Shown piece after piece: positions 1 through 55,618 of a stretch of 64,000 nt of DNA. Position numbers and translations under genes: made by a program. Source of the DNA: a virus (lineage: Duplodnaviria > Caudoviricetes). Every line of letters starts with the position of its first letter. The stretch's first letter is position 1. The notes below the pieces were generated by a model. The model searched no databases. It had not been told where the DNA came from and saw only the letters and a program-made list of their open reading frames with translations. Where the stretch lies: the IMG/VR virus record IMGVR_UViG_2595698902_000001, positions 160,001 to 224,000 of that record; one strand, 5' to 3'.

Positions 1-1
1 T

Positions 2-208
2 GTTGAGCCTATCAAACTGGGCGAACCTGTCGATATGCTGCATGCGGATGAATTGTGGTCGTACTTGGCGGTCCCTGAATACCCGGCGCCGCACTACGAC
101 GGCATTGCCGTTAGCGAACATGGTGTTAGCTCTTTGGGTGACAAATTCAAAGATGCAGATATCGCCTACGTTCCTCTGCATCCACAACAAATCCATTTGG
201 TGAAATAA
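2..208 (+). CDS. 3' end of a gene truncated by the window edge; possible ART-PolyVal-like ADP-ribosyltransferase C-terminus
   Basis: Frame 2 (not in the ORF track) is open from base 2: VEPIKLGEPVDMLHADELWSYLAVPEYPAPHYDGIAVSEHG...IAYVPLHPQQIHLVK*. Its TAA overlaps the next ATG (TAATG). The YDGI...YVxxxPxQI pattern resembles ART-PolyVal C-termini. Confidence 0.6.
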   Translation, partial: VEPIKLGEPVDMLHADELWSYLAVPEYPAPHYDGIAVSEHGVSSLGDKFKDADIAYVPLHPQQIHLVK

Positions 209-1124
209 TGAAAATCCAGCTGGCTGTTGCTGGATCGTCCGTGCTCTATCATTTGATCTACATGGAGCACGCGATTACAGCGCTGAAAAACGACAAGTTC
301 AAACTGGCCCCGGTTAATGAGGGCATCGAATCAGAGTTCGGTACTGCCCAGTATTTCCTGAGTCTGGCGCGTTCTAAGCATTCCGATTACTTCCTAAAAG
401 AGGCTGGTGATACCCACGTCGTTTTCGTGCTCGACGGGCAGAAAATGAATGCGAATTACCAGATCAAGGCCGTCGATTACTGGCACAAGCAGGCATTCGT
501 CGATGACGACGAAAAAGAAGATCGCCTGTTCGCAAACAAAATGTACATTCCGTGCATTCGCTACATCAAAGAAATCCACTTCATGAAAGAAAATCCGAAG
601 TGGAAGGTTAACGACTCGCTAACGCTGGCACTGCTAGCCAAACGTGCTGGGATTCCGCTGTTCCAGTATTCCAGCATGAACGCTTTCCGCATGTTGGATA
701 AACGCAAGACAATCAAACTTGAAGTTTCTGACAAAAAGAAACGCAAGTTCGGCACCAAAGTTTCCCAACCGTACACGACCGGCGAACTGGAGGCGTGGTA
801 CGTTGCATCGCAAATTGTTTTTAAAGGCAGCGAAACGCATTACACGCAATACCTGAAAGGCGCCCGCACCAAGCAAGAACAAAGCAGCCGCGATATGATT
901 GCCCGTCGTATCAAAACGATGATCAGCATGCACGACGTTGGCAGCCAGCCGGTGCGCGATTTCAACCGGCTGCTGGATGCTGCCAAGGAAGGGCCAGACT
1001 ACAATTCCTTGAGAAAATTAAACGTGTCAAACGTAGGCTGCGCGTCGATACCAAAGGCTTTTTGGATTATGTGCGCAAGCGCTGGATGACGCCCGAAGAA
1101 CGCGAACTACATGGACTAGAATAA
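208..1124 (+). CDS. ADP-ribosyltransferase-like protein with MKIQLAVA leader (apparent frameshift near 988-1000; uncorrected ORF ends at 1089)
   Basis: LYH...YFLSLARS...VFVLDG...VDYW...EKEDR resembles the H/S/ExE ART-fold motifs. The -1 frame continues LQFLEKIKRVKRR...ELHGLE* to a TAATG coupling with the next gene. Confidence 0.6.
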
Positions 1125-3053
1125 TGCGAATTCAACTCGCAGTAGCGGCGGTGCCTTTGAGTATCGCCCGCCCATACGTCAAAGGATGGAACCGGTTCGG
1201 TATTGGCGTGCAGGCCGTCCGCCGAACCATGCCGAAAGGAACCCGAGGCTATAACAAAGGGTATCGCCTGTATCTGCCGATCAAACCGGGAAAACGACCA
1301 AAAGTTGTGGTGCCGAAATTCATTGATCGAGCTATTTCTTCTGCTGGTTACAGAGTCGAGGATTACATTACCGGCATTGCGGTGGACATGGCCGGTAAGC
1401 GTCGAATAAAAATCGGCAAATTGCTCAAAGACGAAGAGCTGCGCAATCAGTTTGCAAACGACCCGCAGCGCGCTGCATTCAAAAACGATTATGTCTGTGT
1501 GATTTCCGCGCATCCTTACGATGTAATCGGTATGTCTACCGGTCGCCGCTGGGACGATACTTCCTGTATGAGATTGGCGCAGCCGGGTGTGCGCGGTGGC
1601 GCTTTCCAATCCACAGTCAAACACGACGTTGCCGAGGGCACGTTGGTTGCCTACGCGATTTCCCCGAACGATAAAAATATCAACAAACCGCATGGCCGTT
1701 TGTTGATTAAACCGTTCTACGATGAACACCGCAATATTCTGTTCCGCGTAGAAACCACGGTCTATGGTACGCCGGTTCCGGGCTTTGTCGAGACGGTGCA
1801 GCGCTGGCTGAAAAAGGTTAACAAAGACGCAGCGCAAGGCATTTACAAAATTGCGGATGGCCTTTACGACGATGGCGTCGGCGAAGCGTTTATCAACGTT
1901 GACGTAGATAAAAAGTCGGATGCAGAGTTGCTTGATTATTGGCGGAAATCCGACCACGCAGATCGCCGGATGCTGATGCGTTCTGATATTCGCTGGGCAA
2001 AACCTGCAATTCTTTTGACCATTGAGAATAATCAGGACGATCTAGACGGCTTGTCCTACGCGCTTGCGACCGTGTTGACCAGAAGCCATATTCTCTATGA
2101 TCAACCAACCTCCAAAAAGATTGCGAAAATCATAGACGAGGTTATGCCAGAAGACGTTGCACAACAGCTGATGTTGGAAATGCTGTCGCACGGTGGCGAA
2201 AAGGTGGTGAGATATTCCACCAAACTCAAGGCCGCAGCAGACACGTACTATGCGTATGATCCTAACAAGAAATTGCGACTTAGTGTGGCGGTGCAGTACG
2301 CCGCTTATGATCCGCGTTTCCTTGGCAACGTTGAAAGCCTTACTTCCGACGACGCACGCGGTATCTCTGGATTGGCACGGTCGTTTATTCGCGGCTCTTC
2401 CAAAGATACAAAAGAATTCCGCCGCTCCAAAATGGAAGGCTCTAAGCTTCTACGCAGGACGCTGGCTGTAATTGCCGCTGCGCTGATGAAAATTCCAAAG
2501 TCGCACAAAGACAAAGGCGAGCACATTGAGAAAATGGCGCGTTGGTTTAAAACCGACGAATTCTACGACGCTCAAGTGTGGAAAGTTCTACAGACTCGCG
2601 CCCTCGGTATGGTTAGCCGCAGCATCGACATAAGCAGCGGCAACCTCGCTGTCGGTTTGTGTGCTCTTGACGATTCGTGGCCGCGCCAGATTAACGAACT
2701 GGTCGAATCCACCGAGTACATCGAAGAAAGCCCCGAAGCGATGCAAAACGTTTGCAATTGCCGCAACACTGCCGCGCAAGGGCAATTGATCGTTAAGCTT
2801 CAAGCTGGTGGTTATATACGCGATCCCGGCTGGCTGCGCGAACATTCGTACATTATCGGCTTGTTGGAAACCATCGTCAAAGACGAAGATGGCGAATGGG
2901 ATGGCACCCGTATCCAGACAATGGCGCGCAATTCGCTGGATAAACTTGCCAAAGTCGCGCCAGCAAATGGAAGACATTTTCAACGAACTGAAAGACGCCG
3001 GATTTGATGACGAAGAGGACGACGAAAACGGCCTCTTCGATGATGAGGATTAA
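1124..3053 (+). CDS. Putative internal virion protein, paralogue 1 of the HPYD-MSTGR-SCM family (apparent frameshift near 2951; uncorrected ORF ends at 3007)
   Basis: MRIQLAVAA leader and an N-terminal domain shared with the genes at 3063 and 5797. The +1 frame gives an acidic tail ending at 3053, just before the next RBS. Confidence 0.75.
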
Positions 3054-3062
3054 GGGGAACCT

Positions 3063-5726
3063 ATGAAAATTCAACTAGCCACCGCAGCCGTAGCCTTACG
3101 CACTGCAATTCGCTACAGCAAAAACTGGAATAAAAACTCGCCGACCGTGCGCCTGTTGCAGTCGATGATGCCCGATGTTCCCGGCCAGAAAAAAGGTTAT
3201 CGTTATTACATCGACCTGAAACGCGATAACAAGCACTATTCGATTCCGCCTGCTGTAAGAAGCGCGGTGAAAAATGCCGGTTTTGTTATCACTGATTACC
3301 TCGCCAAGAAATGCGTAAAGGCCTCCGACAAAGAGCAGAAAAACGTATTCAACATTGGCAAGGTTATCGCCAAAGACCCGCACGCCAAAGCCGCGTTCGA
3401 CAACGATCCGCAATTGCAGAACAGTAAAACCAGCGAAATCAAAATCGTTGTTTCCTGCCACCCATACGACATTATCGGTATGTCCACTGGCCGGGACTGG
3501 GATAAACAATCCTGTATGCGACTCGACGACGGATATCGAAACGTCGGTGACGCTGGCGCCTACCACAGACATGTAGAGCACGACGTGGCCGAGGGCACAT
3601 TGGTGGCGTATGCAATTCGCGCCTCCGATACCAATATTCAAAAGCCGCTGGGCCGTTGCCTGATTAAACCTTTCCTGAATTCGGACGGGTACGAAGAGGG
3701 TGGTGAACATCACATTTTATTCCGTCGCGAAACTGCTATTTACGGAAACGGCGTGCCGGGTTTTGGTCGCGCATTAAATCTGTTTTTGCATAAACTGAAT
3801 GCCAAGGTTCCGTCCGGGTATTATGAGCGTGTACAGAGTCTGTACGATGACGGCGTAGGCGATGACCATCACCACGACGCTGACAGAGCACAAAGCGACA
3901 AAATCGCCGTGAGTGATGTTGTAGAAGATAATCGTTTGATTATCCCATACATGGATCAGATATTTGAGGAAGATGCTTCGGTGCGAGAGGCGTTAGCGCC
4001 CCTGCGAATGAAAGGTCTTGAGCTGCACGATACGGAAGTTACACATCTTGCCGGAATGTTCCGAGAAGATGATGAAGTAAAAGACGAATTGGATTATCTG
4101 ATTCGCAGCGGTCAAGCCACGACTGCGATTTACAAGCTGGCAAAAGCGTTGGACCTTACCCATAAGAATCAGCCATCTAACTATCGCGATATGTCCCGCA
4201 ACGAGCTTGTCGGCCAAGCGACGCTGAAAGACGAAAAAGCGATGGTGGAAATCCTGAATCGTTTGAATAACGAAGAGACTTCCAAATCTGATGCGGATAT
4301 GATTTATACCAGCTGGTGCAAATCCCGCCTGCCTCTGCCGTCGGCTGATCTACTGCTGAAATATCCAAAGGTTACAGTGAAGCTGGCAAGTCTCGCTAAA
4401 GCCAGTATGAACCTGCGTGCCTTCTTTGATGATGGCGACTTTGACGAATTCGCTTTTGCTTTCCGTGACCTGAATGTCGATCCGGCTTCCTACGGCGATC
4501 ACCGCCCGGAACCGGAAGATTTGCTGAATATGATGTACGCGATTGGTCACTACGAGCTGGCGCTGTGCTGCATCTACGAAGAGTACAAATGGTTGGGCGT
4601 CGTGATTTACGACACGGTAAACCACGACTACGCCGACCGCTTCGACAACCGCAAATTGTACCGCGCATTCAGCAAATTGTCCGATTCCAATATGGACGAT
4701 TACATGGATCGTATACGTGAGAAAATCTTTGAACGCATTATGGCGGGCAGCCGCCTCCAGTTCAAAGACGCAAAACCAGACGTACTGGCGCAGTATCTGA
4801 ACGATCCTGATTTGCTGCGTAACAAGGATCGGTGGGAACCTACGCACATTCATCGTTTGATTGATTTCAGCCTGCCACTAGCCATGATGCTGGACATTCC
4901 GAACGACAGTCTACTGCCTCGCGTTTTGCCTGAGTATTACAAGGCCTTGGTTGCCTACGAAGGCGAGCCGCTGGAAGTCCAATCGGTAAGCATGGAATGG
5001 GCAATGCAGCTGCTAGTTTACGCTAACAAGCTGACCAAAGAAAAACCGGATATTGCCAGCAAGATTGCCGAGTTTGAACCGCTTGATACCGCCACCCTGA
5101 TTGAGAAATATCGGGTACGTAATGCGAAGACATACAACTACGAAAAAACCCTTGCTGCTTTCTGCCTAAGTCTGAAAATCGGCCAAGCTGTAGACGGAGA
5201 ACGCCTTAGCGTGATGGACGATCCGGTCTATATGGCAACGGATTTCGATACTGCGGTTATTACCGCACCTCCGCATAAACTGGCGGAAAACATCCACACA
5301 ATTCTCAACAATCTCATTGAGCGTTCGGATATTCGTCAAATTGTGCGGATGCTGGAAACCGTATCGGAGTCCCTGAATTACCAGCCGGATTTCACGTCGC
5401 CCGACGACTACGCCAACGATAAAATGGAAGAAGAAGTCGTAGACGATTTCGACTACCATATTGTTCGTGAGCAATACGAAGAGGAAGGCCGCGATAGACT
5501 GGAAACTGAACTTGCGGCATTCAGGAAAGTTGCCGAGGCCCACGAAACCCTGCGCGAATTCGTTGGTTACGATGATTCCGAAGAAACATTGGATGTAGAT
5601 TTGCCAAACGTTTCTAAGGAAGATTTGGATCAGGCAGGCGGCGATATTTCCATGCTCATTCAAACCGTCAATGGCAACCAATACAGCATTGATGACTCGA
5701 TTATCGAAGCCGAAGGTATGCTGTAA
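3063..5726 (+). CDS. Putative internal virion protein, paralogue 2 of the HPYD-MSTGR-SCM family, acidic C-terminus
   Basis: 887-aa ORF with RBS GGGGA, MKIQLATAA leader and SCHPYDIIGMSTGRDWDKQSCMRL...EGTLVAYAI...GRCLIKPF. Confidence 0.85.
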   Translation: MKIQLATAAVALRTAIRYSKNWNKNSPTVRLLQSMMPDVPGQKKGYRYYIDLKRDNKHYSIPPAVRSAVKNAGFVITDYLAKKCVKASDKEQKNVFNIGKVIAKDPHAKAAFDNDPQLQNSKTSEIKIVVSCHPYDIIGMSTGRDWDKQSCMRLDDGYRNVGDAGAYHRHVEHDVAEGTLVAYAIRASDTNIQKPLGRCLIKPFLNSDGYEEGGEHHILFRRETAIYGNGVPGFGRALNLFLHKLNAKVPSGYYERVQSLYDDGVGDDHHHDADRAQSDKIAVSDVVEDNRLIIPYMDQIFEEDASVREALAPLRMKGLELHDTEVTHLAGMFREDDEVKDELDYLIRSGQATTAIYKLAKALDLTHKNQPSNYRDMSRNELVGQATLKDEKAMVEILNRLNNEETSKSDADMIYTSWCKSRLPLPSADLLLKYPKVTVKLASLAKASMNLRAFFDDGDFDEFAFAFRDLNVDPASYGDHRPEPEDLLNMMYAIGHYELALCCIYEEYKWLGVVIYDTVNHDYADRFDNRKLYRAFSKLSDSNMDDYMDRIREKIFERIMAGSRLQFKDAKPDVLAQYLNDPDLLRNKDRWEPTHIHRLIDFSLPLAMMLDIPNDSLLPRVLPEYYKALVAYEGEPLEVQSVSMEWAMQLLVYANKLTKEKPDIASKIAEFEPLDTATLIEKYRVRNAKTYNYEKTLAAFCLSLKIGQAVDGERLSVMDDPVYMATDFDTAVITAPPHKLAENIHTILNNLIERSDIRQIVRMLETVSESLNYQPDFTSPDDYANDKMEEEVVDDFDYHIVREQYEEEGRDRLETELAAFRKVAEAHETLREFVGYDDSEETLDVDLPNVSKEDLDQAGGDISMLIQTVNGNQYSIDDSIIEAEGML
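3324..3380 (+). repeat. 57-bp exact direct repeat, copy 1 (copy 2 at 6070-6126)
   Basis: TCCGACAAAGAGCAGAAAAACGTATTCAACATTGGCAAGGTTATCGCCAAAGACCCG is identical in both paralogues. Confidence 0.9.
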
Positions 5727-5748
5727 AACAATAATTTGATAGTAAACC

Positions 5749-5778
5749 AAGGGGATTTGGCGACAAGTCCCCTTTCTT
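5749..5778 (+). terminator. Intergenic hairpin or Rho-independent terminator
   Basis: AAGGGGATTTG-GCGA-CAAGTCCCCTT followed by TCTTT. Confidence 0.6.
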
Positions 5779-5796
5779 TACATTAGGGACGCACAA

Positions 5797-8496
5797 ATGA
5801 AAATTGCGCTCGATTTTATGGGCACCGCAGCCGTTTCTATGCGTAGCGCGTTGAAGTACCGCCGCAATTGGAACAAGGAAAGCCCAACCGTAAAGCTTTT
5901 GCGCACACTGATGCCAAAAGGCTCAAAAGGTTTTCGTGTTTATTCCCCTATCGGCGCAGGTGCCCACGTTAACCATAACGTTCCCCGTGTTCCGGTCGCT
6001 GTGCGTTTAGCCGTACAGCGCGCAGGTTTCCGCATTACCGATTACCTTGCAAAGAAGTGCGTTAAACGTTCCGACAAAGAGCAGAAAAACGTATTCAACA
6101 TTGGCAAGGTTATCGCCAAAGACCCGGTGGCGAAGGCAGCATTCGACAATGACCCGCAGCTGCAAAACAGTTCGACTTCGGAATTTACGCTGGTTGTTTC
6201 GTGCCACCCATACGACATTATCGGTATGTCTACCGGTCGTGATTGGGATAACACTAGCTGTATGCGGTTAAAAGACGACCGCAAAGGCTATAGCGACGGC
6301 TTTAACTCGCGTTATCTTAATCACGATATCTCTGAGGGCACATTGGTTGCGTATGCAATTCGCTCCAATGACCAGAATATTACTGCACCACTGGGCCGGT
6401 GCCTGCTCAAGCCTTTCCTACGCACCGATGACGACGGCAAACAGCTGGTTATGTATCGTAGGGAAACCAAGATTTACGGCAACCCTGTTCCCGGTATGCC
6501 GGAAGCGTTAAGTGTATTTCTTCGCCGCCTGAATGCTGGCGTTCCGACCGGCACGTATTACATGAATTCCCTTCTGTATAACGACGGCGTGGCCGACGTG
6601 CATGAGCACGACGAAGAAAAAGAAGGCAGCAGTAAAATCGATTGGCTGCACGCCAACGAATATGAGATTTTCCGCGACCGTCCGCAAATGTTCCCAGCAT
6701 ACGTGGAATGGATGGTCAAAAACATTAAAGCTGGCGAGGCCCCGGCCAGCAGCGCGGAAACGATGATCGTCACCTTTGCCGAAAACGTTCCGGCCCGCTA
6801 CGTCAAGCAAGCGGCACGCATGATTGATGATCGCGATTTGCTGATTGCGTTTGCTGACCATATGGTGCTTTCGTCCAGTGGCTCTGACGCGAAAACCTAT
6901 AGCAAATTCTGTGCGTCCAAAACTTTCCGCAAACGCTTGGCAGCTGTTGCCGACGAAGCCTATATGCCGGAAAGCTACGCTGTCCTGTCGCACCTTTCCG
7001 CGAAGTATGCACATAAGTTCTTTGAAGAAGAGAAAAGCCGTGGGGCACTAGACGACCACCGCGATTTGGTTAATCTGGCAATGAATACCATTTATGGTTA
7101 CAACAGCCTGACCAAAACCGACATTGAATCGCTGCCGATGCTGCATTCTCTTGTTTATCACTTTGCCAATTATGTGCGCGCCGCGTCCGTTTATGGCATG
7201 ACTGATTATCAGGAAAACGCGCACAAATACCTGTCGATTCTGGCCGAGCCGCAGCCGCTGCCAATCGAAGCTTATGTGTCTTTGCTGGATTACCTCCGAG
7301 ACGATAAAGCAAACGCGCCTATCCTGTTTGCGATGCTCATGGAAGCGATCAAAAACGACAAAGCAAATCAAATTGATTTGTGCCTGACTAGCGGCTTCGA
7401 CACTAAGCTTATGGCGTCGTGCTTGTACGAACGTCGTATGCGCCGCGCCTTGCTGAATCAGCGGAAAAACCTGAGTGCAAAAGGCGCAGAAATGCTGGCC
7501 GATGGCGTTGCGCAGGTTTATACGGATAGCGACGAAGACGAAAACCACAACGCGACCAGCGCGGCCCGCGAACTGACTGCCTACATTCAGAAAAATACGT
7601 TCGATGCTGTGTCGGCAGAAAACGCCCGCACCTTGCAATACAGCGCGCCAGAACTTATTCCGTATCTGTTTGCATCCGGTGTGCAGATCGACCGTGAAAA
7701 CGTCCTGACTGTGTTGGGCAATCAAATGTTTGCGAGGGCTGCTAGAAACATGCCGCGCAACGAGTCGAACAAAAACATCCTGAAAATCGCCGATACCTTT
7801 GTGGGTATTATTTCACCAAACACGGATTTCCAACGCAGAAGGAAAGATCGTCCAGAACCGAGTGACGAATTCCCAGCCGTGGTGGACCCGGAGGTTTTGG
7901 AGCTGATTCGTAAATCGCTGAACGATTTGCCCGCCTACACTTACGACCTAGACAAATACCCGCAGTTGTACAGCACGCAATTCTACAAGGAAGAGCGCCC
8001 GAACCTTTACACTCTGTACACGTCGGGCAAGCTGCAATCTGTGCTAAAACATATGGATTCGGAAGAGTCCGTAGCACTGATGCGTGCGATTGCTAGCGAT
8101 CTTTCTGGTTTATCGCCAGTGCTCGCAACCATGCGTAACGATGATCGAATGCTGGCCGATTCCTACGCCATGACGCAGCTGATGGGCCTTATGCGTTCGG
8201 CTAGTAAATCCGAGGCGATTGATGAATCCGCAAAAACGGTGCAATCCATTGTAAACGCTGTGCGTAATCTGGAAGCGATGGTGCGTGACGTATTCCCACC
8301 AGTTGGCGCGCATATCGACCAATGGCGCAAAGTTGTTCCACAGCTGGCTGATGCGGAATATCCGTTTGCAGATATCGCCGTAAAAGACATGCTGGAAGGC
8401 GTGCAATCGTTGAAGAAACAGACACGGATTTTTGAATTGCTCGATTCCGAGCTGGCGCAATACTACCCGGACGATTGGCCGAAGGTGACTGCATGA
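5797..8496 (+). CDS. Putative internal virion protein, paralogue 3 of the HPYD-MSTGR-SCM family
   Basis: 899-aa ORF starting MKIALDFMGTAAV, with the same N-terminal domain and an unrelated helical C-terminus. Confidence 0.85.
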   Translation: MKIALDFMGTAAVSMRSALKYRRNWNKESPTVKLLRTLMPKGSKGFRVYSPIGAGAHVNHNVPRVPVAVRLAVQRAGFRITDYLAKKCVKRSDKEQKNVFNIGKVIAKDPVAKAAFDNDPQLQNSSTSEFTLVVSCHPYDIIGMSTGRDWDNTSCMRLKDDRKGYSDGFNSRYLNHDISEGTLVAYAIRSNDQNITAPLGRCLLKPFLRTDDDGKQLVMYRRETKIYGNPVPGMPEALSVFLRRLNAGVPTGTYYMNSLLYNDGVADVHEHDEEKEGSSKIDWLHANEYEIFRDRPQMFPAYVEWMVKNIKAGEAPASSAETMIVTFAENVPARYVKQAARMIDDRDLLIAFADHMVLSSSGSDAKTYSKFCASKTFRKRLAAVADEAYMPESYAVLSHLSAKYAHKFFEEEKSRGALDDHRDLVNLAMNTIYGYNSLTKTDIESLPMLHSLVYHFANYVRAASVYGMTDYQENAHKYLSILAEPQPLPIEAYVSLLDYLRDDKANAPILFAMLMEAIKNDKANQIDLCLTSGFDTKLMASCLYERRMRRALLNQRKNLSAKGAEMLADGVAQVYTDSDEDENHNATSAARELTAYIQKNTFDAVSAENARTLQYSAPELIPYLFASGVQIDRENVLTVLGNQMFARAARNMPRNESNKNILKIADTFVGIISPNTDFQRRRKDRPEPSDEFPAVVDPEVLELIRKSLNDLPAYTYDLDKYPQLYSTQFYKEERPNLYTLYTSGKLQSVLKHMDSEESVALMRAIASDLSGLSPVLATMRNDDRMLADSYAMTQLMGLMRSASKSEAIDESAKTVQSIVNAVRNLEAMVRDVFPPVGAHIDQWRKVVPQLADAEYPFADIAVKDMLEGVQSLKKQTRIFELLDSELAQYYPDDWPKVTA
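6070..6126 (+). repeat. 57-bp exact direct repeat, copy 2
   Basis: Identical to 3324-3380. Confidence 0.9.
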
Positions 8497-8921
8497 AAAT
8501 TCAATTAGCTATTGCAACCGCTAGCGACGACATGAATGCGCGGGTTAGTACCGACGTGCGGGCAGTAATTGCCAAGTCGTACAGCTCGCTATTTTCCAAT
8601 GTATTTTATCAGGTGCTGGATATTCCCGACCGCAGCAAATCGGATATCCGTCTGGTAAAAGAAATGGAAGACGACTACATTCCTGTCGTGGTGACTGTCG
8701 AAGATCAAGACCATAACAAGGTCACGTTTGTTTTCGCGGCTCACCGGATGCAGCCAATGTTGGGTAACGCAAACCCAACTAGAGGCTGGCTGTTGCACGA
8801 AAATAAAGTCGATGAATTCACGCTGGAATCGCGAGTAATCAAGGTGCGCGGCATAGCGTTTGCAATTGCCGCAATGGTTGCCCGGCGTGCCTCCCGCTTT
8901 ATCGATTTTGGCAATAACTGA
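8493..8921 (+). CDS. Hypothetical protein with MKIQLAIATA leader
   Basis: The ATG at 8493 overlaps the upstream TGA (ATGA), and the leader motif fixes the start. Confidence 0.8.
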   Translation: MKIQLAIATASDDMNARVSTDVRAVIAKSYSSLFSNVFYQVLDIPDRSKSDIRLVKEMEDDYIPVVVTVEDQDHNKVTFVFAAHRMQPMLGNANPTRGWLLHENKVDEFTLESRVIKVRGIAFAIAAMVARRASRFIDFGNN

Positions 8922-9145
8922 TGAATATATTGCTCACCGTAGCCAAGTCCGGTTCTGCTGAGCGTTGGGACGCGTTGCCCTCTTCTGCTGAAAGATTTGA
9001 TAAGGCAAAAGAGGGCAGGGCGCTCAAAGCTAGTGGGAAAAAGAAATCGAAAAAGAAGCGCACACGTTCGGGCATAATTGACGCACCTACAACAGGTACG
9101 GAAATGCGCCAGACGGACGTTAGCTCAAGGGTAGGATTCCCCTAA
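8921..9145 (+). CDS. Small basic protein with MNILLTVA leader
   Basis: TGATG/TAATG coupling on both sides; Lys-rich. Confidence 0.7.
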   Translation: MNILLTVAKSGSAERWDALPSSAERFDKAKEGRALKASGKKKSKKKRTRSGIIDAPTTGTEMRQTDVSSRVGFP

Positions 9146-9402
9146 TGAAACTGACAATCAAAGGTCGCGCTCGCCAAGACGACACCACGGAAAACCCCAA
9201 GCATACTGGGGTTCGTGCTGCCGATTGGGAAGACGACGACAAAATGATCAAGAACATGCCGCCCGAAAAGAAGAAATCTTTGCTGCGAAATCAGCAAGAT
9301 ATTCCGAACAAAGGCGCGACCATGCCGCACGACTACATTGAGAAAATGCACGTCTCTAAATCGAACTGGCTTAGCCGGTTAGAGCGAGGGCGTGAACGAT
9401 GA
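9145..9402 (+). CDS. Small hypothetical protein
   Basis: Coupled to both neighbours; starts MKLTIKGRA. Confidence 0.7.
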   Translation: MKLTIKGRARQDDTTENPKHTGVRAADWEDDDKMIKNMPPEKKKSLLRNQQDIPNKGATMPHDYIEKMHVSKSNWLSRLERGRER

Positions 9403-9839
9403 AAATCATGCTTGCTGTTGCGTGCGGCCTGTGCAACGTCGAGATTCCAGAGGACGCGTTTTCTTACGTCGAACCGACTAAAGCTAAGCGCGTAAAAGGT
9501 ATCAGTGAGGACGCAGTAAAAAGCCTGCTGGACAACGAGCTGGCGCGTGCGTCTGATGCCACTTCAAAGCAGCAACACGCTGACCACAAAAAGGACGGCG
9601 CGCTGCAAAAGAAAGTGAAGACGGCACAAGATGCAAAGATGAAAAAGCAGCAAAGCTTGCGCGCTATGCAGTCACAGCTGGTTGCCCTCAACGGCAAGCG
9701 CCCAACTGATCCGAAAAAGATTCAGAATTGGACTAAACGCCGCCGCGCTTTAGCCGAAAAGATCACAGAGAAAAGAAACTCTATTCGCCTTTCCGATTCC
9801 CGTGTCGCTGGCATGAGAAAGGAAGTCCGTGAAAACTAA
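9399..9839 (+). CDS. Basic coiled-coil protein with MKIMLAVA leader
   Basis: ATGA coupling and a K/R/Q-rich helical C-terminal half. Confidence 0.75.
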   Translation: MKIMLAVACGLCNVEIPEDAFSYVEPTKAKRVKGISEDAVKSLLDNELARASDATSKQQHADHKKDGALQKKVKTAQDAKMKKQQSLRAMQSQLVALNGKRPTDPKKIQNWTKRRRALAEKITEKRNSIRLSDSRVAGMRKEVREN

Positions 9840-9859
9840 CGAATTGGAGACTGTTGCTC

Positions 9860-10333
9860 ATGGCTACAGCGAGAAAACGGCGGAAACCGCCAGTAAAGAA
9901 GACTAAACCAAAAGCCGGTAAGCCTACGGCTGCAAAGAAACGTTCAGGTTCCAAAAAAGCCAAAGTTAGCCCGGTAGCATCACGGGCGCGCAAACTCGGC
10001 TTAGAATCGATGGGGTACGGTCGCTGGGGTAAGTTGGGGCGTATCACGCACCGGACTGTCGGCGGTAAACTGGTCGAAGTAAAAGACAGTAAACACAACC
10101 GTATCAAAACGAAGGAAGGTAAAGACAAAGCAAAAGGTTTGCTGTCTAAGCTGATCCTGCAATCCACGCAAAAACTGGTCAAGATTCGCATGGCGCTGAA
10201 AAAGGCCGAAGGGCGGAATGACATTGAGCAAGTCAAGCATCTGAAAGCGTTGCTTGAAAAGACAAAGAAAGACACGACCAAAGCCCGCGAGCGTGCAGCT
10301 CAAGTGCATGGCCGTACAAGAAAGGCAGCATAA
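9860..10333 (+). CDS. Highly basic, histone-H1-like putative DNA-binding or condensing protein
   Basis: RBS GGAGA; MATARKRRKPPVKKTKPKAGKPTAAKKRSG...; contains ARKLGLESMGYGRWGK. Confidence 0.7.
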   Translation: MATARKRRKPPVKKTKPKAGKPTAAKKRSGSKKAKVSPVASRARKLGLESMGYGRWGKLGRITHRTVGGKLVEVKDSKHNRIKTKEGKDKAKGLLSKLILQSTQKLVKIRMALKKAEGRNDIEQVKHLKALLEKTKKDTTKARERAAQVHGRTRKAA

Positions 10334-10373
10334 AAAAAGCCCCCGCATCCACAAAAGGACCGGGGGCTTTTTT
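10332..10373. terminator. Bidirectional Rho-independent terminator at a convergent junction
   Basis: A7-GCCCCCG-15 nt-CGGGGGC-T6 between two convergent stop codons. Confidence 0.9.
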
Positions 10374-10375
10374 AT

Positions 10376-10897
10376 TTACATTGCGTATTCCACGATATCG
10401 AACTCTTTGACGCTTGCCAGATCGGTGCGCTGCAAACGATTAACCATAATGTGATTAAACACCGCTGGAGTGACGCGCACGTCGCAGTTGAAATCACCTT
10501 TAACATGCGTGATACGAACCAAGCTTGCTTTCGGCAGTGCCTGCTGAATCAAATTCGCGCCACCGATTACCCACGCAATATCCGATTCAAAACGGCGATG
10601 GCTGCTGTGAATCAAATACTCAGCGATTTTCAACGCAGTATCAAAACTCTCAGCCAGCCAAACGTCGGCGCCTTCCTCCATGTCAATTTGCTTTGGATTA
10701 GAGCTGACAACGATATGCGGGCGACCGGGCAGCGTTTTGCAGCCCAGCGATTCCCACGTTTTACGACCGAGGATAATCGGCTTGCCGTAAGTTGCAGCCT
10801 TGAAATGCTTCAACTCTTCTGGAAAGTGCCACGGCATAGTATTGTCGCGCCCGATACCGCCTGCTTCGTCACACGCAAAAATAATTCCCAGTTTCAT
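10376..10897 (-). CDS. folA: Dihydrofolate reductase
   Basis: GIGRDNTMPWHFPEELKHFKAAT, IILGRKTWESL, LPGRPHIVVS and VIGGA motifs. Confidence 0.95.
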   Translation of the reverse strand: MKLGIIFACDEAGGIGRDNTMPWHFPEELKHFKAATYGKPIILGRKTWESLGCKTLPGRPHIVVSSNPKQIDMEEGADVWLAESFDTALKIAEYLIHSSHRRFESDIAWVIGGANLIQQALPKASLVRITHVKGDFNCDVRVTPAVFNHIMVNRLQRTDLASVKEFDIVEYAM

Positions 10898-11175
10898 AGC
10901 AATTCCATGTTGATATGACAGACCAGAACGTCGCCAGCGTATTGACTGGCGGGCTTGCGCACGCGCACATAAACCATGCCGGATTTCAGCGGGGCACTGA
11001 CTTTCGGTTTCGTGAAATTGGAAGAAACTTCACGCTTGAAAGCTGCAATGCCTTTCTCGCTGCCACTGACTTCGACAGTGTACACCTTGGGCGCATTGCA
11101 GAACTCGGTAAGCATGGTGATTAGTGCGTCACGCGCCTTTTCTTTGGCGTTGGGCGCGTATTCAATTCCACTCAT
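10894..11175 (-). CDS. Hypothetical protein
   Basis: Overlap-coupled within the minus-strand operon. Confidence 0.65.
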   Translation of the reverse strand: MSGIEYAPNAKEKARDALITMLTEFCNAPKVYTVEVSGSEKGIAAFKREVSSNFTKPKVSAPLKSGMVYVRVRKPASQYAGDVLVCHINMELL

Positions 11176-11471
11176 TTTTTCGCTTTCCGTTTCGGCACGT
11201 CAATGTAGGAAGTTTCCCAGTAGCCACTGATTCGATTGTAACCAGCAGGCACGCCGTCATCCAGCACAATGCGATTTTCCAAAGTGTCAAAACCGAGCAA
11301 GGAATCGTAGAACTTTTTCTTGTCGGCGCTGACGTGTGGCGCGCAGTTGGTAATGATGATTTCCCTAACATCAGGGTCGTCGTGCGATACCAGCAAACCC
11401 TTACTCAACCACTCCGAAAAACCAAAAGGCAATGCGCGCTTTGTTTTGTCGCAGAGTAGGAAAAGTTTCAC
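11172..11471 (-). CDS. Hypothetical protein
   Basis: Overlap-coupled within the operon. Confidence 0.65.
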   Translation of the reverse strand: MKLFLLCDKTKRALPFGFSEWLSKGLLVSHDDPDVREIIITNCAPHVSADKKKFYDSLLGFDTLENRIVLDDGVPAGYNRISGYWETSYIDVPKRKAKK

Positions 11472-11800
11472 TTGTAGCGCTCCAGAATTTCGTAACCGCG
11501 AATGGACATGGCAGTAATCACACGAACCGGGGCACCAGACTTGAAATCCAGACGCGGCGAGAACATGGGCAGGCCGTTGAAATAGCCGAGGTGGCCGGGC
11601 GCTTTGGAATCAGCCACAAAGTAAACGTGATCTTTCATTTCCTTCAACATACCGTTGGTGTCGGAAACCACGATAGCCTTGGCGCCCTTGAACAGCTCTT
11701 CCCACTTTTCAGCGGACGGCATTTTGTGAACTTGTGTCCACGCGTTGGTGTGCTGGTAAATCAGGTCGGAAACAACGTTTGCGTCGAGTGCATTTTGCAT
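11468..11800 (-). CDS. Hypothetical protein (possible capsid-fold fragment)
   Basis: RBS GGAG and strong codon bias; AIVVS...GHLGYFNGLPMFS. Confidence 0.7.
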   Translation of the reverse strand: MQNALDANVVSDLIYQHTNAWTQVHKMPSAEKWEELFKGAKAIVVSDTNGMLKEMKDHVYFVADSKAPGHLGYFNGLPMFSPRLDFKSGAPVRVITAMSIRGYEILERYK

Positions 11801-11830
11801 GGTAATTACTCCGTTTGGTCAGTGTTGCGT

Positions 11831-12550
11831 TTAGTGTTTTGGTGCAATCCAGATTTCGCGGTGGAATGCGATTGGTTCGTCGGATTTACACAGCGCCGGA
11901 TGCAGACGGGAATCTGTGTATATCTCTACTTTACCATTTACAGTATTAAGCGTGCCGACGTAACCATTCATACTGCGCTCAGGAACGGCCTCGAAAGTAA
12001 ACATGCGACGTTCGACTTCACCGCTTACCAGTTTGGCGTCAAGGTCAGCAATAAAATCGGTGATATATTCACACGGAATGCTGATCGCTTTGACCAGCGT
12101 GAGATACGGCATCATGCCAGCCATCAGGCCATCGTAGGTCAGCGTTGCAGGCGACCACGTATAAGCGCGTTTTTCTTTCATGCCAAGGTATGGGCAACGC
12201 GACAATTCCAATTCGCGGACGTAAGCGCCTGTGAATTGACCGAACAGAACCGGGGCGCCTACTGGGTATTTGTCGGCAGAATAAATATCCGAGAAAATGT
12301 CAGTTCCCAAGTAGGTAGCCATGTAGCCGCCCGCTGTGTTTTCTGGCGTCATTTCTGCAAACTGGAAACCGTGGAATTGCCCAGCCCATTTTGCGACTAA
12401 GCCCCACTGGGTATCCGGCACCAGAACGTAGGCGGCATCGGGCGCCATGAGCCGGAATTGTTCCATAGCTTCAACGGAATCGTTCAGGAATAACGTTTTC
12501 CCGTCACGCGGCAAATCGCGGAAATTGAAACGGTCCTCAATCCTTTTCAT
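11831..12550 (-). CDS. Hypothetical protein (possible duplicated capsid-fold fragment)
   Basis: Two similar segments: YMATYLGTDIFSD and YVGTLNTVNGKVEIYTDSRLHP. Confidence 0.7.
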   Translation of the reverse strand: MKRIEDRFNFRDLPRDGKTLFLNDSVEAMEQFRLMAPDAAYVLVPDTQWGLVAKWAGQFHGFQFAEMTPENTAGGYMATYLGTDIFSDIYSADKYPVGAPVLFGQFTGAYVRELELSRCPYLGMKEKRAYTWSPATLTYDGLMAGMMPYLTLVKAISIPCEYITDFIADLDAKLVSGEVERRMFTFEAVPERSMNGYVGTLNTVNGKVEIYTDSRLHPALCKSDEPIAFHREIWIAPKH

Positions 12551-13002
12551 TGCTCCACCTTCACCAGAACTTCTGCCGCGTAAACGCCGGTAGTCATGGG
12601 GCCTACCAGCCCGCCGTTATCCGGGTGCGAATCGTAGGTTTCGCCGTTGTAGTAAATAACCGAATGATTTGTGCCGCGAACCGAGGTGCCAGAAAGCATG
12701 ATCGGAACGTCGATTTGAAAACTGAGATATTCCTTCACCACATCCCAGTCACCGACCAGCGTAACGCTAAACAAAACGTAGCCTTGCTCTTTCAGATAGG
12801 CACGCATCCGGTTAATGCAGGCGGCACCTTCAACGTCGGAATATTCCGGCTTGAAAGTCAGGCCTTCCGCAAAGTGCGGAACTTCCTCGACCGTTGGTTT
12901 GCATAGCAGGCTGGCTACCACGGTGCGCATACAATCGCCGTTCTGGTGCGGCGGGTTATGTTTGATAGTTTGTTTGTGGTGAATAAACGGCAGATTTTCC
13001 AT
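12547..13002 (-). CDS. Putative papain/C39-like Cys peptidase-fold protein
   Basis: Q...GDCMRTVVASLL...HSVIY...YDSHP gives Q-C-H-D order. Start placed at MENLPF. Confidence 0.5.
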   Translation of the reverse strand: MENLPFIHHKQTIKHNPPHQNGDCMRTVVASLLCKPTVEEVPHFAEGLTFKPEYSDVEGAACINRMRAYLKEQGYVLFSVTLVGDWDVVKEYLSFQIDVPIMLSGTSVRGTNHSVIYYNGETYDSHPDNGGLVGPMTTGVYAAEVLVKVEQ

Positions 13003-13010
13003 GTCAGTTC

Positions 13011-13439
13011 TCACAAGAAATAGTCGGACAAACGCGCTTGGGATTGCGCCATGCACATGCTGATATCGGCAGGGTCTTGCTCGCAGGACTCCAAATATTC
13101 ATCCCACTTCCACCACATGTTATCTACAAACGCTTTCGGACTGCCACGATCCACATAGCGTTTGTTGTAGTCGAATTTCAGGTCGCGCTTCGGGTAGAAA
13201 AGTGCGTATTTCATTCCGGCATCTTGCAGCGCTTTACGCAGCTGCGGCCACGTCGGCACCAGCACAGTAACGCCGGGGATTTTCAATGCTTCGCGGATTT
13301 GCTCCAGATACGGTCCCATGTCGCTTTTGTATTCGGGAAAATCCACGTCCACAAACGCGTAGCTTTGCTGGGCCAGCATGGATTTGCCGGTGCCCGGAAA
13401 TGCGCTAACGATCCGTGTATCGAGCGGCAGCTTTGACAT
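13011..13439 (-). CDS. Small P-loop (nucleotide-kinase-like) protein
   Basis: IVSAFPGTGKS Walker A and RYVDRGS lid. Start placed at MSKLPLD. Confidence 0.75.
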   Translation of the reverse strand: MSKLPLDTRIVSAFPGTGKSMLAQQSYAFVDVDFPEYKSDMGPYLEQIREALKIPGVTVLVPTWPQLRKALQDAGMKYALFYPKRDLKFDYNKRYVDRGSPKAFVDNMWWKWDEYLESCEQDPADISMCMAQSQARLSDYFL

Positions 13440-13440
13440 T

Positions 13441-13851
13441 TTATTTTCCAGTGATCGCATCGTTGAGTTTGATTTCTTCGCCGTCCGCCATTTTGCGGCT
13501 GAACAGTTCCATAGTGTAGCCAACGGTGCCGAACAAATCGGTGCCTGCATATTCCTCGGTATCGCGCACGAATTTATGCGCTTCGTCCTGCACCTCCTCC
13601 CACCAGAACAACCAGCAGCCAGTGGTCCCGGCGTCGATCATGTCGCTGATCTTTTGCAAGGTTTCGCGGGTGTGGTAAGCCTTCGGGTTATTGTGGCCGA
13701 GAATCTTTGCATCGAAATTCACATACGTGTTGAATTCCGGCAGGAAGTTGAAACCGGTATTGGTAAGCCAGCCGTGCTCATTTTCCAGCACTTCCAGCCA
13801 CGAGAAAATGTCACCTTCAAACTGCGAAAAATTCGGTACTTTCGGTTCCAT
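13441..13851 (-). CDS. Hypothetical acidic protein
   Basis: Fills the gap between thyA and the kinase gene with tight spacing. Confidence 0.65.
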   Translation of the reverse strand: MEPKVPNFSQFEGDIFSWLEVLENEHGWLTNTGFNFLPEFNTYVNFDAKILGHNNPKAYHTRETLQKISDMIDAGTTGCWLFWWEEVQDEAHKFVRDTEEYAGTDLFGTVGYTMELFSRKMADGEEIKLNDAITGK

Positions 13852-13853
13852 TA

Positions 13854-15134
13854 TTAGTTACCTGCGATAGGGGCTTTGATGGTTTCGTAAGATTCGTAGC
13901 CAACCAGATTAACGTCTTCCAGCTGGATATCCAGAATCGAGTTAACCGGACCGCTTTTGATTTCCAGTTTCGGCGATTTGTAGATGATCGGGCGGCTCAG
14001 CTGTTCGCGTACCTGCTCGACGTGGTTGGAATAAATGTGCGCATCGCCGATGGTAATGTGCATATTGCGAGCCTGCAAATCGTGTGCGTGGGCCAGCATT
14101 TCGGTAAGCATTGCGTACTGGGCAACGTTGAACGGCGCGCCCAAGAACATGTCATTGGAACGCATGTACAGCTTGCAATCCAAATAGTATTTTCCGTTCC
14201 CGTTTTTGTTGCTGCTAACGTACCACTGCGCCAGCGTATGGCAGGGCGGCAAACTCATTTCATCCAGCTGCGCAACGTTCCAGCCGGTCAGGATAATGCG
14301 ACGGCCCGCGCTGTGTTTTTCGATTTCGCCATTGTGGAAACGGATTTCGTTTTTGATCGCCTCTTCGACCGCTGCAATCTGGTCAACTTTGCGGCCAATG
14401 GCGATTTCCCAACCGTTAAACATTTTGCCGATAACGGAGTAACCTTTTGCAGCCCAGCCGTCTGGATCGGCACGCCAATCAGCGCTGTCGATAATACGTA
14501 TATCGTCCCATTCGCGCCACTGTTTCCCGTAGATCGGGCCAAGGTCGCCGCCGCTCAGTGCGCGTTCTGGAATGCCCCAGTTATTTAGCTGCAAATCCAG
14601 CTGTGCCCATTGCTCTTCGGTCGCTTTGTCCGTATCCAGAATGAAACCCACACCGGCCTCGATATTTTCAGGCAGCGCGTTTTCATTAACCGTAGACGGC
14701 ACGCCGATATCCCGCAGGAACTGTCGAGCTTTCATGCGTTGGCCGGACGTGCCCAAAAGCATACGCTCTTTTGCGTGCAGTTTTCTGCCTTCGTAAACTT
14801 CGGTGCCCGGTTTTACGTTCTGGTCCCAAATGTTTACGTTGATATCCTTCAACGTTTTCAGATCAGATTTGCCTTCCAGCATCCACTTAATCGTTTCCTT
14901 TTTCATGGTAACGAAGCGCAGAATTTTGGCAGTGATCGCCGGGAAGCCGTCGCGCAAATCCAGCGAGTAATTGACCGAACCGAACACGCTAATGGTTCCA
15001 GTTTTGGTGCGGTCATTGCGCACTTCGCCATGATCCAGAATGTGCTTGAGCACGCCCCGGAATTCAAAATCAAACGTGTTGTCTTCGTAGAAAACACGGT
15101 CCTCTGACGAACGAACCAAACCTGCGTAGAACAT
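13854..15134 (-). CDS. thyA: Thymidylate synthase with large insertions
   Basis: NDRTKTGT, GDLGPIYGKQWR, RRIILTGWN, LPPCH, YMRSNDMFLGAPFN and GDAHIYSNH. Confidence 0.95.
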   Translation of the reverse strand: MFYAGLVRSSEDRVFYEDNTFDFEFRGVLKHILDHGEVRNDRTKTGTISVFGSVNYSLDLRDGFPAITAKILRFVTMKKETIKWMLEGKSDLKTLKDINVNIWDQNVKPGTEVYEGRKLHAKERMLLGTSGQRMKARQFLRDIGVPSTVNENALPENIEAGVGFILDTDKATEEQWAQLDLQLNNWGIPERALSGGDLGPIYGKQWREWDDIRIIDSADWRADPDGWAAKGYSVIGKMFNGWEIAIGRKVDQIAAVEEAIKNEIRFHNGEIEKHSAGRRIILTGWNVAQLDEMSLPPCHTLAQWYVSSNKNGNGKYYLDCKLYMRSNDMFLGAPFNVAQYAMLTEMLAHAHDLQARNMHITIGDAHIYSNHVEQVREQLSRPIIYKSPKLEIKSGPVNSILDIQLEDVNLVGYESYETIKAPIAGN

Positions 15135-54934: not shown

Positions 54935-55618
54935 TTATTCGCCCTCTTCTCGGTTGTAGGTTGGGAGCGCAGCAGCCGTGCGGTACTTGGCTTTTTCGCC
55001 CATGATGAAATTGTAGAATGCTCGGCTAGGCGGAACGCCCAAGCGAATGTATTCCAGATAACCGGCAGGCCAAGACCAGCCGTTGAATTCGTATTCGCCA
55101 CAGCCACGATTTACGTTGGTGAGTCGGCAGAAACTCATACCGCGATACAGCACCTGCTCCAAAACTTCTTCGATTTCGACCAGATGGTTGATGAAATCTT
55201 GGCGGTCAAATTCTGGAATATCCATGACGACCGGCCACGGATAAAGCGAAACTTCTTTTTCGTAGTGCGTGCGGAAACTGGAACGGCCACTTTGGATAGG
55301 CGCGGGCAGCTCTTCTTTGTTGCGCCAGTAGCCTTCGATACGCTTGGGGAATCTCGACGTAGCATTCAGCGCTTCAAACTGCCGCTTCTGCGCGCTGTAC
55401 GTTGCGTGCTTCAAAGCCTCGATACCCATGTCGGTCGGCTCTACCAGTTTCACAAAACGATATTCGCTTTGTGGATATTCGCCGTCCAAAGAATATTCGT
55501 GCTCGTTACCGGTATAGCAGTAGGTGCGGTCGTCATATAGGCGCACAATAGCGGGCTTATCTACCGGTGTCAGCAGCCAGTAATAACCGGGTTCCTTCAC
55601 TTCATACCATTGCAGCAT
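54935..55618 (-). CDS. Hypothetical protein (EPGYYW N-module; C-terminal YRGMSFCRL...EYEFNGWSWP domain)
   Basis: Shares its N-terminal module with the adjacent gene at 55602-55859. Confidence 0.7.
   Translation of the reverse strand: MLQWYEVKEPGYYWLLTPVDKPAIVRLYDDRTYCYTGNEHEYSLDGEYPQSEYRFVKLVEPTDMGIEALKHATYSAQKRQFEALNATSRFPKRIEGYWRNKEELPAPIQSGRSSFRTHYEKEVSLYPWPVVMDIPEFDRQDFINHLVEIEEVLEQVLYRGMSFCRLTNVNRGCGEYEFNGWSWPAGYLEYIRLGVPPSRAFYNFIMGEKAKYRTAAALPTYNREEGE

Follow-up and report, generated by a model that had tools for sequence, protein, structure and literature searches.

The window analysed here is the 64,000-nucleotide stretch from 160,001 to 224,000 of the single-contig, 280,538-bp phage genome IMGVR_UViG_2595698902_000001 (Caudoviricetes), and it opens with consecutive genes whose products share a short N-terminal peptide, or tag (Table 1). 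The consensus of the tag is M-[KR]-I-Q-L-A-x-A; it is mostly eight residues long, ends in hydrophobic-Ala-x-Ala and contains no Glu. An earlier note, made from the letters of the window, had listed eight such starts and read the shared peptide as an Ala-ending address that loads unrelated proteins into the phage head for injection with the DNA. All eight starts were found at the positions given, and seven of them carry the tag (window 208, 1124, 3063, 5797, 8493, 8921 and 9399). The eighth, 'MATA' at 9860, is not a tag: its orthologue in Pseudomonas phage HRDY3 starts differently, and its start codon is ambiguous (TTG 9854 or ATG 9860). HRDY3 is the closest named relative of this phage (33% identity over 97% of the length for the 887-aa tagged protein and 85% for the capsid protein). 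Farther relatives are PaBG, the Erwinia/Dickeya jumbo phages Yoloswag, Y3, JA29 and AD1, and phiRSL1.

Table 1. Features of the tagged array in window coordinates (an arrow marks the predicted cleavage position; pI, isoelectric point; ART, ADP-ribosyltransferase)
Feature	Position	Strand	Details
150-aa tagged gene, 3' part	2..208	+	starts upstream, genome 159,756, GTG; (M)KIQLAVAT
293-aa tagged gene	208..1089	+	tag 208-231, MKIQLAVA↓G; predicted ART fold, residues ~6-165
627-aa tagged paralogue 1	1124..3007	+	tag 1124-1147, MRIQLAVA↓A; conserved N-terminal domain of ~260 aa, then divergent tail
887-aa tagged paralogue 2	3063..5726	+	tag 3063-3086, MKIQLATA↓A; homologue of RsoM2USA ORF132
terminator-like hairpin	5749..5774	+	11 pairs, G+C-rich, T-rich tail; between 887-aa and 899-aa paralogues
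899-aa tagged paralogue 3	5797..8496	+	11-residue variant leader 5797-5829, MKIALDFMGTA↓A (MKIALDFMGTAA)
142-aa tagged gene	8493..8921	+	tag 8493-8516, MKIQLAIA↓T; HRDY3 orthologue MELMLALAA
74-aa basic tagged gene, pI 10.5	8921..9145	+	tag 8921-8944, MNILLTVA↓K; HRDY3 orthologue MEVLISLAG
85-aa untagged gene in array	9145..9402	+	MKLTIKGRA; HRDY3 orthologue MPKLTIKGRA, likewise without tag
146-aa basic tagged gene, pI 10.0	9399..9839	+	tag 9399-9422, MKIMLAVA↓C
157-aa Lys-rich gene, end of co-oriented block	9860..10333	+	HRDY3 orthologue MAIKKAKPVKK

The entire genome was translated in six frames and searched with a strict form of the tag, M[KRNT]I.[LI][ASTDG].[AS]. Ten matches were found against 0.55 expected from residue frequencies, and all ten were the starts of plus-strand open reading frames (ORFs) within a single 13-kb array (genome 156,291-169,399), six of them in the window and four just upstream. 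When the plus-strand ORFs between 150 and 171 kb were read directly, the gene at 159,756 (GTG start), window 5797 with its variant leader, and diverged tags at 154,182 (MKLYLTTAS) and 154,604 (MNVHIAVAA) were added. The co-oriented array thus holds 14 tagged genes and lies downstream of a terminase, portal and Vgr block. With three more in the head module, the genome holds at least 17 tagged genes. A loose form of the tag, M-x3-[LIM]-[AST]-x-A, begins 18 of the 365 called ORFs, compared with a mean of 1.19 and a maximum of 5 in 500 shuffles of residues 2-30; 13 of these ORFs lie in the array, three in the head module, and two appear to be chance matches.

Beyond the tag, the proteins are largely unrelated, as had been noted for the window. 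When the 17 tagged proteins were compared by blastp after removal of their first 12 residues (E<=0.01), only two paralogue sets were linked (161124/163063/165797, which are window 1124/3063/5797, and 156980/158064/160208), and the 17 ORFs represent at least 13 sequence families. Within the first set, the 627-aa protein matched the two larger paralogues with E values of 7e-53 and 3e-53. Amino-acid identity between tags was 0.83 over residues 2-8 and only 0.10 over residues 10-24. The codons for Leu, Ala, Ile, Gln and Val differ from tag to tag: at residue-identical positions, the same codon was used in 102 of 260 pairs (39.2%), compared with 35.0% expected from genome codon usage, and no conservation was found in the 30 bases upstream of the tagged genes. 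A DNA repeat was ruled out on these grounds, and the claim that conservation lies in the peptide holds. Thus, the tag is not an RNA element.

Since synonymous sites are near random and the peptide is 83% identical, the tag appears to be under purifying selection. This bears on the idea that the shared start is a relic of recombination behind a common 5' cassette and that the peptide is now functionless. Clustering in one array and the local duplication evident from the two paralogue sets are what such a history would leave behind; however, selection on the peptide and its retention, though with divergence, in numerous phages and metagenomic relatives make a relic very improbable indeed.

A role outside the capsid was also considered, in which the tag would act as a translation-start or N-terminal stability signal for a co-regulated operon, or in sorting to another compartment, for example export. 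The tagged array genes are all co-oriented and many are translationally coupled, and the A-x-A end resembles a signal peptidase I site. Sec signal peptides carry a hydrophobic core of roughly 7-15 residues ahead of the A-x-A. Here the entire tag has eight residues, and the longest hydrophobic run within the first 30 residues is 3-6 in six of seven window proteins and 10 in the remaining one. A Sec or lipoprotein signal was rejected because the tag is so short and the hydrophobic runs of those six proteins fall short of what Sec requires. The L-A-V-A-C at window 9399 was likewise set aside, as it is no fit to a lipobox and is lacking in the HRDY3 counterpart. Free codon choice and unconserved upstream DNA argue further against a signal at the RNA level, and a function outside the capsid would leave several findings described below unexplained: that the motif recurs in the portal, scaffold and capsid proteins, that tagged genes neighbour the head protease, and that phage RsoM2USA has a homologue in its virion. 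We regard such a role as quite improbable.

The head genes were located by mapping the annotated head genes of HRDY3 onto the genome. The head module lies on the minus strand at 34.7-49.7 kb and includes genes for a protease (PHROG 18299), a 634-aa acidic scaffold-like protein, a 247-aa virion structural protein and the capsid protein (PHROG 2522). Three tagged ORFs flank the protease, at 49,704 (MIISLAAA; 425 aa, KMPT-N domain), 45,093 (MFISIAWA; 446 aa) and 41,683 (MKVYLAIA; 120 aa), the last of which lies between protease and scaffold; the HRDY3 orthologues of all three are also tagged. In PaBG, the array itself adjoins the scaffold and capsid genes.

The motif that ends the tag recurs within the head proteins. 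The scaffold-like protein contains 10 copies of the strict form, [LIV][AT][VTILA]A, where 1.42 would be expected, and none of the other 365 called ORFs reaches so high a value. Each of the 11 scaffold sites examined by eye could be paired with one in the aligned HRDY3 protein, partly within diverged sequence (for example, HVAVASAR and ELATASAQ). Residues 68-73 of the capsid protein read V-A-T-A-S-S (I-A-T-A-S-S in HRDY3) and are followed by an indel; a cut after A71 would take off 71 of 364 residues (19.5%). The PaBG capsid protein is 61% identical to that of this phage, and extracts from its published characterization report that its mass drops by about 20% on maturation and that several virion proteins run in multiple bands (PMC7412058). 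The mass loss agrees with the 19.5% predicted here. The portal protein of both this phage and HRDY3 has L-A-T-A↓A at the exact border between an N-extension of some 57 residues, which is poorly conserved, and a body that hardly varies. Because the motif at the end of the tag is found in the capsid, scaffold and portal proteins as well, the most likely function of the tag is to mark proteins that are to be loaded into the head and trimmed there.

The 634-aa protein (genome 39,347-41,251; L011:5347-7251; minus strand) is labelled 'ATPase' both by PHROGs and in HRDY3, whose annotation splits the counterpart into two ORFs, with MATAS at the start of the second. A Pfam search of this protein showed no ATPase motif. 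It has a long Asp/Glu run, many sites of the protease motif and a position between the protease and capsid genes, and it looks like a scaffold. For the capsid protein, a match to PDB 6wkk had been taken to make V-A-T-A↓S the mature N-terminus of phage G; this was dropped because the chain is nearly the full precursor, and the match shows only that capsid residues 1-72 form an extension absent from phage G. The phage G capsid protein has a precursor of 282 aa and a mature form of 255, according to extracts of its description (PMC5646251). A tblastn search with the HRDY3 and PaBG capsid proteins also finds a second locus at genome 77,519-78,184, with copies of an internal segment of the capsid protein.

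The head protease was modelled with AlphaFold2 (AF2) from 44 homologues (pLDDT 80.7). In VIA, the model matched T4 gp21 (5jbl) with a Z of 10.0 and a root-mean-square deviation (rmsd) of 3.1 over 137 residues. The proteases of herpesviruses, namely varicella-zoster (VZV), pseudorabies (PRV), herpes simplex (HSV), human cytomegalovirus (HCMV), Epstein-Barr (EBV) and Kaposi's sarcoma-associated herpesvirus (KSHV), scored Z 5-6.7, as did unrelated MlaD/MCE chains. H136 and S190 are invariant in the 44 sequences. This model supports a gp21/assemblin fold for the head protease. Residues C200, C203, C215 and H217 of the protease (L011:8570-9424) are invariant too and look like a metal-binding insert of the zinc type; T4 gp21 is not known to have such an insert.

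Tags are found in other phages of this group, in forms of their own. In HRDY3, starts of the types MEMMLALA, MELQLALA and MNFELAVA occur on 12 of the 21 coding sequences (CDS) listed, including an annotated GNAT protein and a type I topoisomerase. Its genome has 28 loose matches with at least 50 codons after them; the array holds 14, of which 12 are gene starts and the other 2 are internal, and the head module holds 2. Yoloswag carries MEIVVSLS, MEILISLS, MEIVISFS and MEKVVSLS on 4 of 34 CDS, and JA29 has M-x-[IVL]-x-[VIF]-S-[LI]-S starts on 9 of 31 CDS. In the scaffold, A-x-A is enriched in this phage (31 against 16.2 expected), HRDY3 (37 against 16.8) and PaBG (27 against 12.9), and S-x-S is not. 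S-x-S is enriched in the scaffolds of Yoloswag (27 against 10.5) and JA29 (27 against 11.3; p=0.0005 each), and A-x-A is unenriched in that of Yoloswag (8 against 7.1). Near capsid residue 30, this phage and HRDY3 have L-S-S-A↓T-G-E, compared with L-S-E-S↓T-G-E in Yoloswag and JA29.

Covariation between tag and scaffold was examined in 79 viral-contig loci around protease homologues, in which scaffolds were found by tblastn and tags were called automatically, chance hits included. After dereplication, a usable scaffold was available for 41 loci, 36 of which bore a tag of the A-x-A or S-x-S kind. Across these 36, the type of tag correlated with the type of motif in the scaffold (Spearman 0.65). 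The close relatives (L020-L037) have A-x-A tags and scaffolds in which A-x-A is enriched 2.1-2.4-fold, and the Erwinia/Dickeya-like loci (L073-L098) have S-x-S tags and scaffolds in which S-x-S is enriched 2.3-3.0-fold. The safest reading is that the protease takes small residues at P1 and P3, with preferences that differ between lineages. Within a literature library that excludes subscription-only papers, such as that on the Erwinia Y3 proteome, no description of a shared leader or capsid-targeting tag in the PaBG/Yoloswag/Lu11 group was found.

PaBG is the one relative with a published band proteome. Its virion band protein gp83 (35.1 kDa; L014, PaBG 54,998-55,960, gp083) is encoded between the type IB topoisomerase and scaffold genes, which is the position of the tagged array, and has the N-terminus MLIKINLLEAVAAK. 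Comparison of gp83 with the genome studied here gave no match.

For the three large paralogues in the window, 118 homologues were compared, 71 of which begin with the eight-residue form of the tag. In the 88 that could be anchored, leaders range from 6 to 20 aa and the site always stands directly ahead of the conserved body, with L/I/M/V at P4 in 82, A/G/S at P3 in all 88, A, S or G at P1 in 80, 7 and 1, respectively, and A at P1' in 82. The other 30, read by eye, comprised 29 with the eight-residue form and one truncated protein. By these alignments, the site is fixed to the body and not to the N-terminus. This explains the odd leader of the 899-aa paralogue, in which M-G-T-A retains the hydrophobic-small-x-Ala form.

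One member of this family has been found in virions, in abundance. The 887-aa protein matches ORF132 of phage RsoM2USA in tblastn (query 9-254, 37.5% identity, E 9e-35). Extracts from the report on RsoM2USA state that ORF132 (76.64 kDa) was identified through liquid chromatography coupled to tandem mass spectrometry (LC-MS/MS) in one of about 10 Coomassie-stained bands of purified virions, and that ORF89 (28.57 kDa) was also among the virion-band proteins identified in this way (PMC8504454). The computed mass of the 674-aa RsoM2USA_132 is 76,624 Da, in accordance with that report. It begins with the leader MKTFKQFLNTLME↓A, which places L-M-E at positions P3-P1 of the alignment, and ORF89 (computed 28,562 Da) begins with the leader MKTFKQFLSE. 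RsoM2USA has a head of the T4 type (Peptidase_S77 85 bits, Gp23 327 bits, Portal_T4 313 bits), and none of six of its head-module proteins, from portal to capsid protein, matched the present genome in tblastn (E<=1e-3). Thus, the two phages have this cargo family in common without a detectably shared head module. In each phage, the leader on this cargo family appears to end in the motif that matches the protease present there.

These leaders also bear on the possibility that the tag is solely a propeptide removed by the protease, such as a latency peptide that keeps ARTs, the topoisomerase and other enzymes inert until they have entered the head, and that the packaging address lies elsewhere in the protein or in a partner. 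The invariant part is the four-residue site before the body, leader length varies from 6 to 20 aa, and many of the cargo proteins are potentially toxic enzymes. In T4 IPIII, moreover, distinct residues of the capsid targeting sequence (CTS) serve targeting and processing, according to extracts of a published account (PMC9026906). However, residues 2-5 are conserved within a phage and change jointly between phages (K-I-Q-L here, E-M-M-L in HRDY3, E-I-V-V in Yoloswag), which is more than a bare cleavage site would need, and at least 13 unrelated families would each require an address of their own. We consider a propeptide without an address function unlikely.

The earlier note had named ART-like effectors, SCM-domain proteins and basic DNA-binding proteins as the cargo. 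In an AF2 model of the 293-aa protein (pLDDT 77), residues 1-7 are disordered, and the tag precedes the first strand. The model matched DarT in Foldseek (E 6.9e-4) and, in VIA, the Tpt1 structure 7yw4 (Z 11.0, rmsd 2.4, 110 aa) and DarT (Z 9.0-10.2 over 140-148 aa); the best 27 VIA rows are all Tpt1/KptA, DarT or CC0527. H15, S52, R55, E102 and E104 are invariant in the family of this protein, for which no Pfam or PHROG family and no usable Atlas feature match were found. These model comparisons support an ART fold, which two upstream paralogues share with the 293-aa protein. The 150-aa protein matched ART-PolyVal (PF18760) over profile positions 7-130 of 140 with an E of 1.6e-4 and 22.9 bits, below the cut-off of 31.2, so its assignment to the ART-like group stays sub-threshold.

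The remaining cargo is varied. By its match to Topoisom_I (PF01028; cut-off 23.7 bits, score 47.6 bits, E 1.7e-12), the 561-aa tagged protein at genome 154,604 is a type IB topoisomerase. The large paralogues may carry an enzyme-like domain; their 260-aa domain has no Pfam or PHROG family, and in an Atlas search it hit nothing but viral clusters without a name, with PcfJ as a weak lead (score 0.86, 29% of members). 'SCM domain' was a label of the note's own, for a domain without a family. The basic proteins are basic as claimed, with a pI above 9 in 10 of the 17 tagged proteins; that they bind DNA is a suggestion from composition alone.

Collectively, we consider it rather probable that the peptide is a capsid-targeting and cleavage tag like that of T4 with Ala/Ser chemistry, as judged from the sequences compared. 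Its tie to the head and its protease is supported by the recurrence of the motif in portal, capsid and scaffold proteins, by the gp21 fold, by the nearness of tagged genes to the protease gene and by the RsoM2USA virion homologue. The stronger part of this interpretation is that the end of the tag is a site of the head protease and that the tagged proteins are internal to the head; packaging in this phage, the position of the cut, the use of the tag as an address and ejection are what we infer from it. The tagged proteins would be made together with the head and packaging genes and carried by the tag into the core of the assembling procapsid. There, the gp21/assemblin-fold protease would cut after the second Ala, at hydrophobic-[Ala/Ser/Gly]-x-Ala↓small, and the same protease would remove the 71-residue capsid propeptide (V-A-T-A↓S-S), break up the scaffold and trim the N-extension of the portal (L-A-T-A↓A). 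The trimmed proteins would remain in the head and probably exit with the DNA. The cargo so delivered would comprise three ART-fold proteins, one ART-PolyVal-like protein, the putative type IB topoisomerase, three large enzyme-like paralogues and several small basic proteins.

Comparison with T4 brings out both likeness and difference. Extracts of a published account state that propeptides of 10-19 residues (7 in the case of Alt, an ART that is packaged) bring unrelated internal proteins into the T4 core and are removed by gp21, and that the T4 internal proteins are basic (PMC9026906). The tag resembles the T4 CTS in being a short N-terminal propeptide common to unrelated, mostly basic proteins and ending in the motif of the head protease, and the likeness extends to an ART among the cargo, the predicted gp21 fold of the protease and the presence of the same motif in scaffold and capsid proteins. 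It differs in ending h-A-x-A↓small (h, hydrophobic) without Glu, where T4 has L/I-x-E, and in a protease without a Pfam S77 match; further, at least 17 genes are tagged here, with 14 in a single array, and a putative type IB topoisomerase and proteins of 600-900 aa are among the cargo. RsoM2USA resembles this phage in having a homologue of the three large paralogues with a cleavable-looking leader at the same aligned position, but the leader is of the T4 type (MKTFKQFL...E) and the head module is T4-like. The tag had been called independent of that of T4: the chemistry does differ, whereas both have the same protease fold, and a phage with a T4-type head has one of the cargo families as well.

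Other systems are less close. The protease sites of phiKZ and SPN3US end in Glu, with the consensus S/A/G-x-E. By the abstracts of their descriptions, these jumbo phages pack many proteins with their DNA, and a gp21-like protease (gp175, gp245) trims N-terminal propeptides (PMC5694885, PMC10052503, PMC7411985). A single shared leader of about eight residues, as here, is not described in those abstracts. The likeness to herpesvirus assemblin lies in the small Ala at P1, the frequent Ser at P1', hydrophobic residues at P3/P4, cleavage of a scaffold and a middling relation in fold (Z 5-6.7). The maturation and release sites of assemblin are (V/L/I)-x-Ala↓Ser; they belong, however, to a eukaryotic virus, and their place is the scaffold/protease precursor, not a tag at the N-terminus of cargo. 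Phages and conjugative elements also have polyvalent proteins and ART-PolyVal domains, enzymatic effectors thought to travel with incoming DNA. The 150-aa protein resembles them through its full-length but sub-threshold PF18760 match; here, however, the cargo is encoded by separate small genes, each with its own tag, and not as domains of one giant protein.

Several observations weigh against the interpretation of the tag as a capsid-targeting and cleavage signal. A tetrapeptide of small residues is a motif of low information. Four array genes carry no tag (window 9145 and 9860; genome 156,597 and 159,002). Searches of the genome for S77, S78 and ClpP proteases gave no match (PF03420 none at E<=1), Pfam returned no families for the protease, and the best Foldseek match of its model, T4 gp21 (probability 0.97), has a weak E of 0.024. 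The tags of PaBG are weak or ambiguous (MKVSFSL, MHTSLSAV, MELAIAS), and its capsid junction reads R-A-P-S-A, not V-A-T-A. In the scaffold of JA29, A-x-A is itself mildly enriched (11 against 5.6 expected, p=0.02). The middle lineages (L049-L070) have clear S-x-S tags, six of them in L053, and scaffolds with A-x-A and S-x-S about equally enriched, and L095 is discordant, combining an S-x-S tag with a scaffold in which A-x-A is 2.47-fold and S-x-S 0.68-fold. Because the loci are related to one another, the nominal p-value of the correlation overstates its support, and the covariation also fits a protease that simply accepts small residues together with lineage drift. The RsoM2USA evidence covers one cargo family, in a phage whose head proteins are unmatched here.

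For jumbo phages of the PaBG/Lu11/Yoloswag/HRDY3 kind, we put forward a broader proposal, tentatively and with slightly more doubt than belief. These phages may share a portable N-terminal code of about eight residues, read by a protease of the gp21/assemblin fold whose preference has moved from Glu to small residues, with at least three states (L-x-E, A-x-A and S-x-S) and a cargo family kept throughout; the code would bring into the head, for delivery with the DNA, enzymes that can vary, among them ARTs like DarT/Tpt1, large enzyme-like proteins and a type IB topoisomerase. If the tag is what it seems, about 17 proteins of the present phage are virion cargo, and the leader shows, from sequence, which proteins a whole clade of little-studied jumbo phages keeps in its heads and injects. 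Since scaffold, capsid junction, portal and tags share one motif, the specificity of the protease would likewise be predictable from the genome, and the shift from L-x-E to A-x-A/S-x-S would be a worked example of a protease changing jointly with its substrates. On the broader proposal, the tag would serve as a natural address for protein delivery, open to re-targeting and with a specificity readable from the genome. It would also be a second natural capsid-targeting system beside that of T4, in phages of Pseudomonas, Erwinia and Dickeya, that could package reporters or enzymes. The cargo, with its DarT/Tpt1-related ART folds, putative type IB topoisomerase and enzyme-like family, is a lead to early host take-over or anti-defence.

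Some further features of the array were observed. The 293-aa gene is frameshifted near codon 265, at about base 1003 (window 990-1123). From about 1003 an alternative frame encodes the conserved C-terminus of the family (...LQFLEKIKRVKRRLRVDTKGFLDYVRKRWMTPEERELHGLE) and stops directly before ATG 1124; the frameshift could be an assembly indel or real. The start of the 142-aa gene overlaps the stop of the gene before it, and its ATG at 8493 sits 18 nt into a TTG-started ORF. The hairpin between the 887-aa and 899-aa paralogues is the sole strong plus-strand terminator-like site in the array and is followed by a promoter-like site at about 5777-5804; in a promoter and terminator scan of the array, such sites were no commoner than in shuffles (22 compared with 25.2). 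A near-identical DNA search of window 1-12000 against a phage collection gave no match, and Pfam and PHROGs searches of nine window proteins gave nothing usable. Upstream of the window, the untagged array gene at genome 156,597-156,983 encodes a 128-aa protein in which a Gly-X-Y stretch resembles collagen (sub-threshold match to Pfam Collagen, E 8e-4). After the array, the minus strand of window 10376-15134 carries dihydrofolate reductase-like and thymidylate synthase-like genes, an arrangement that is the same in HRDY3.

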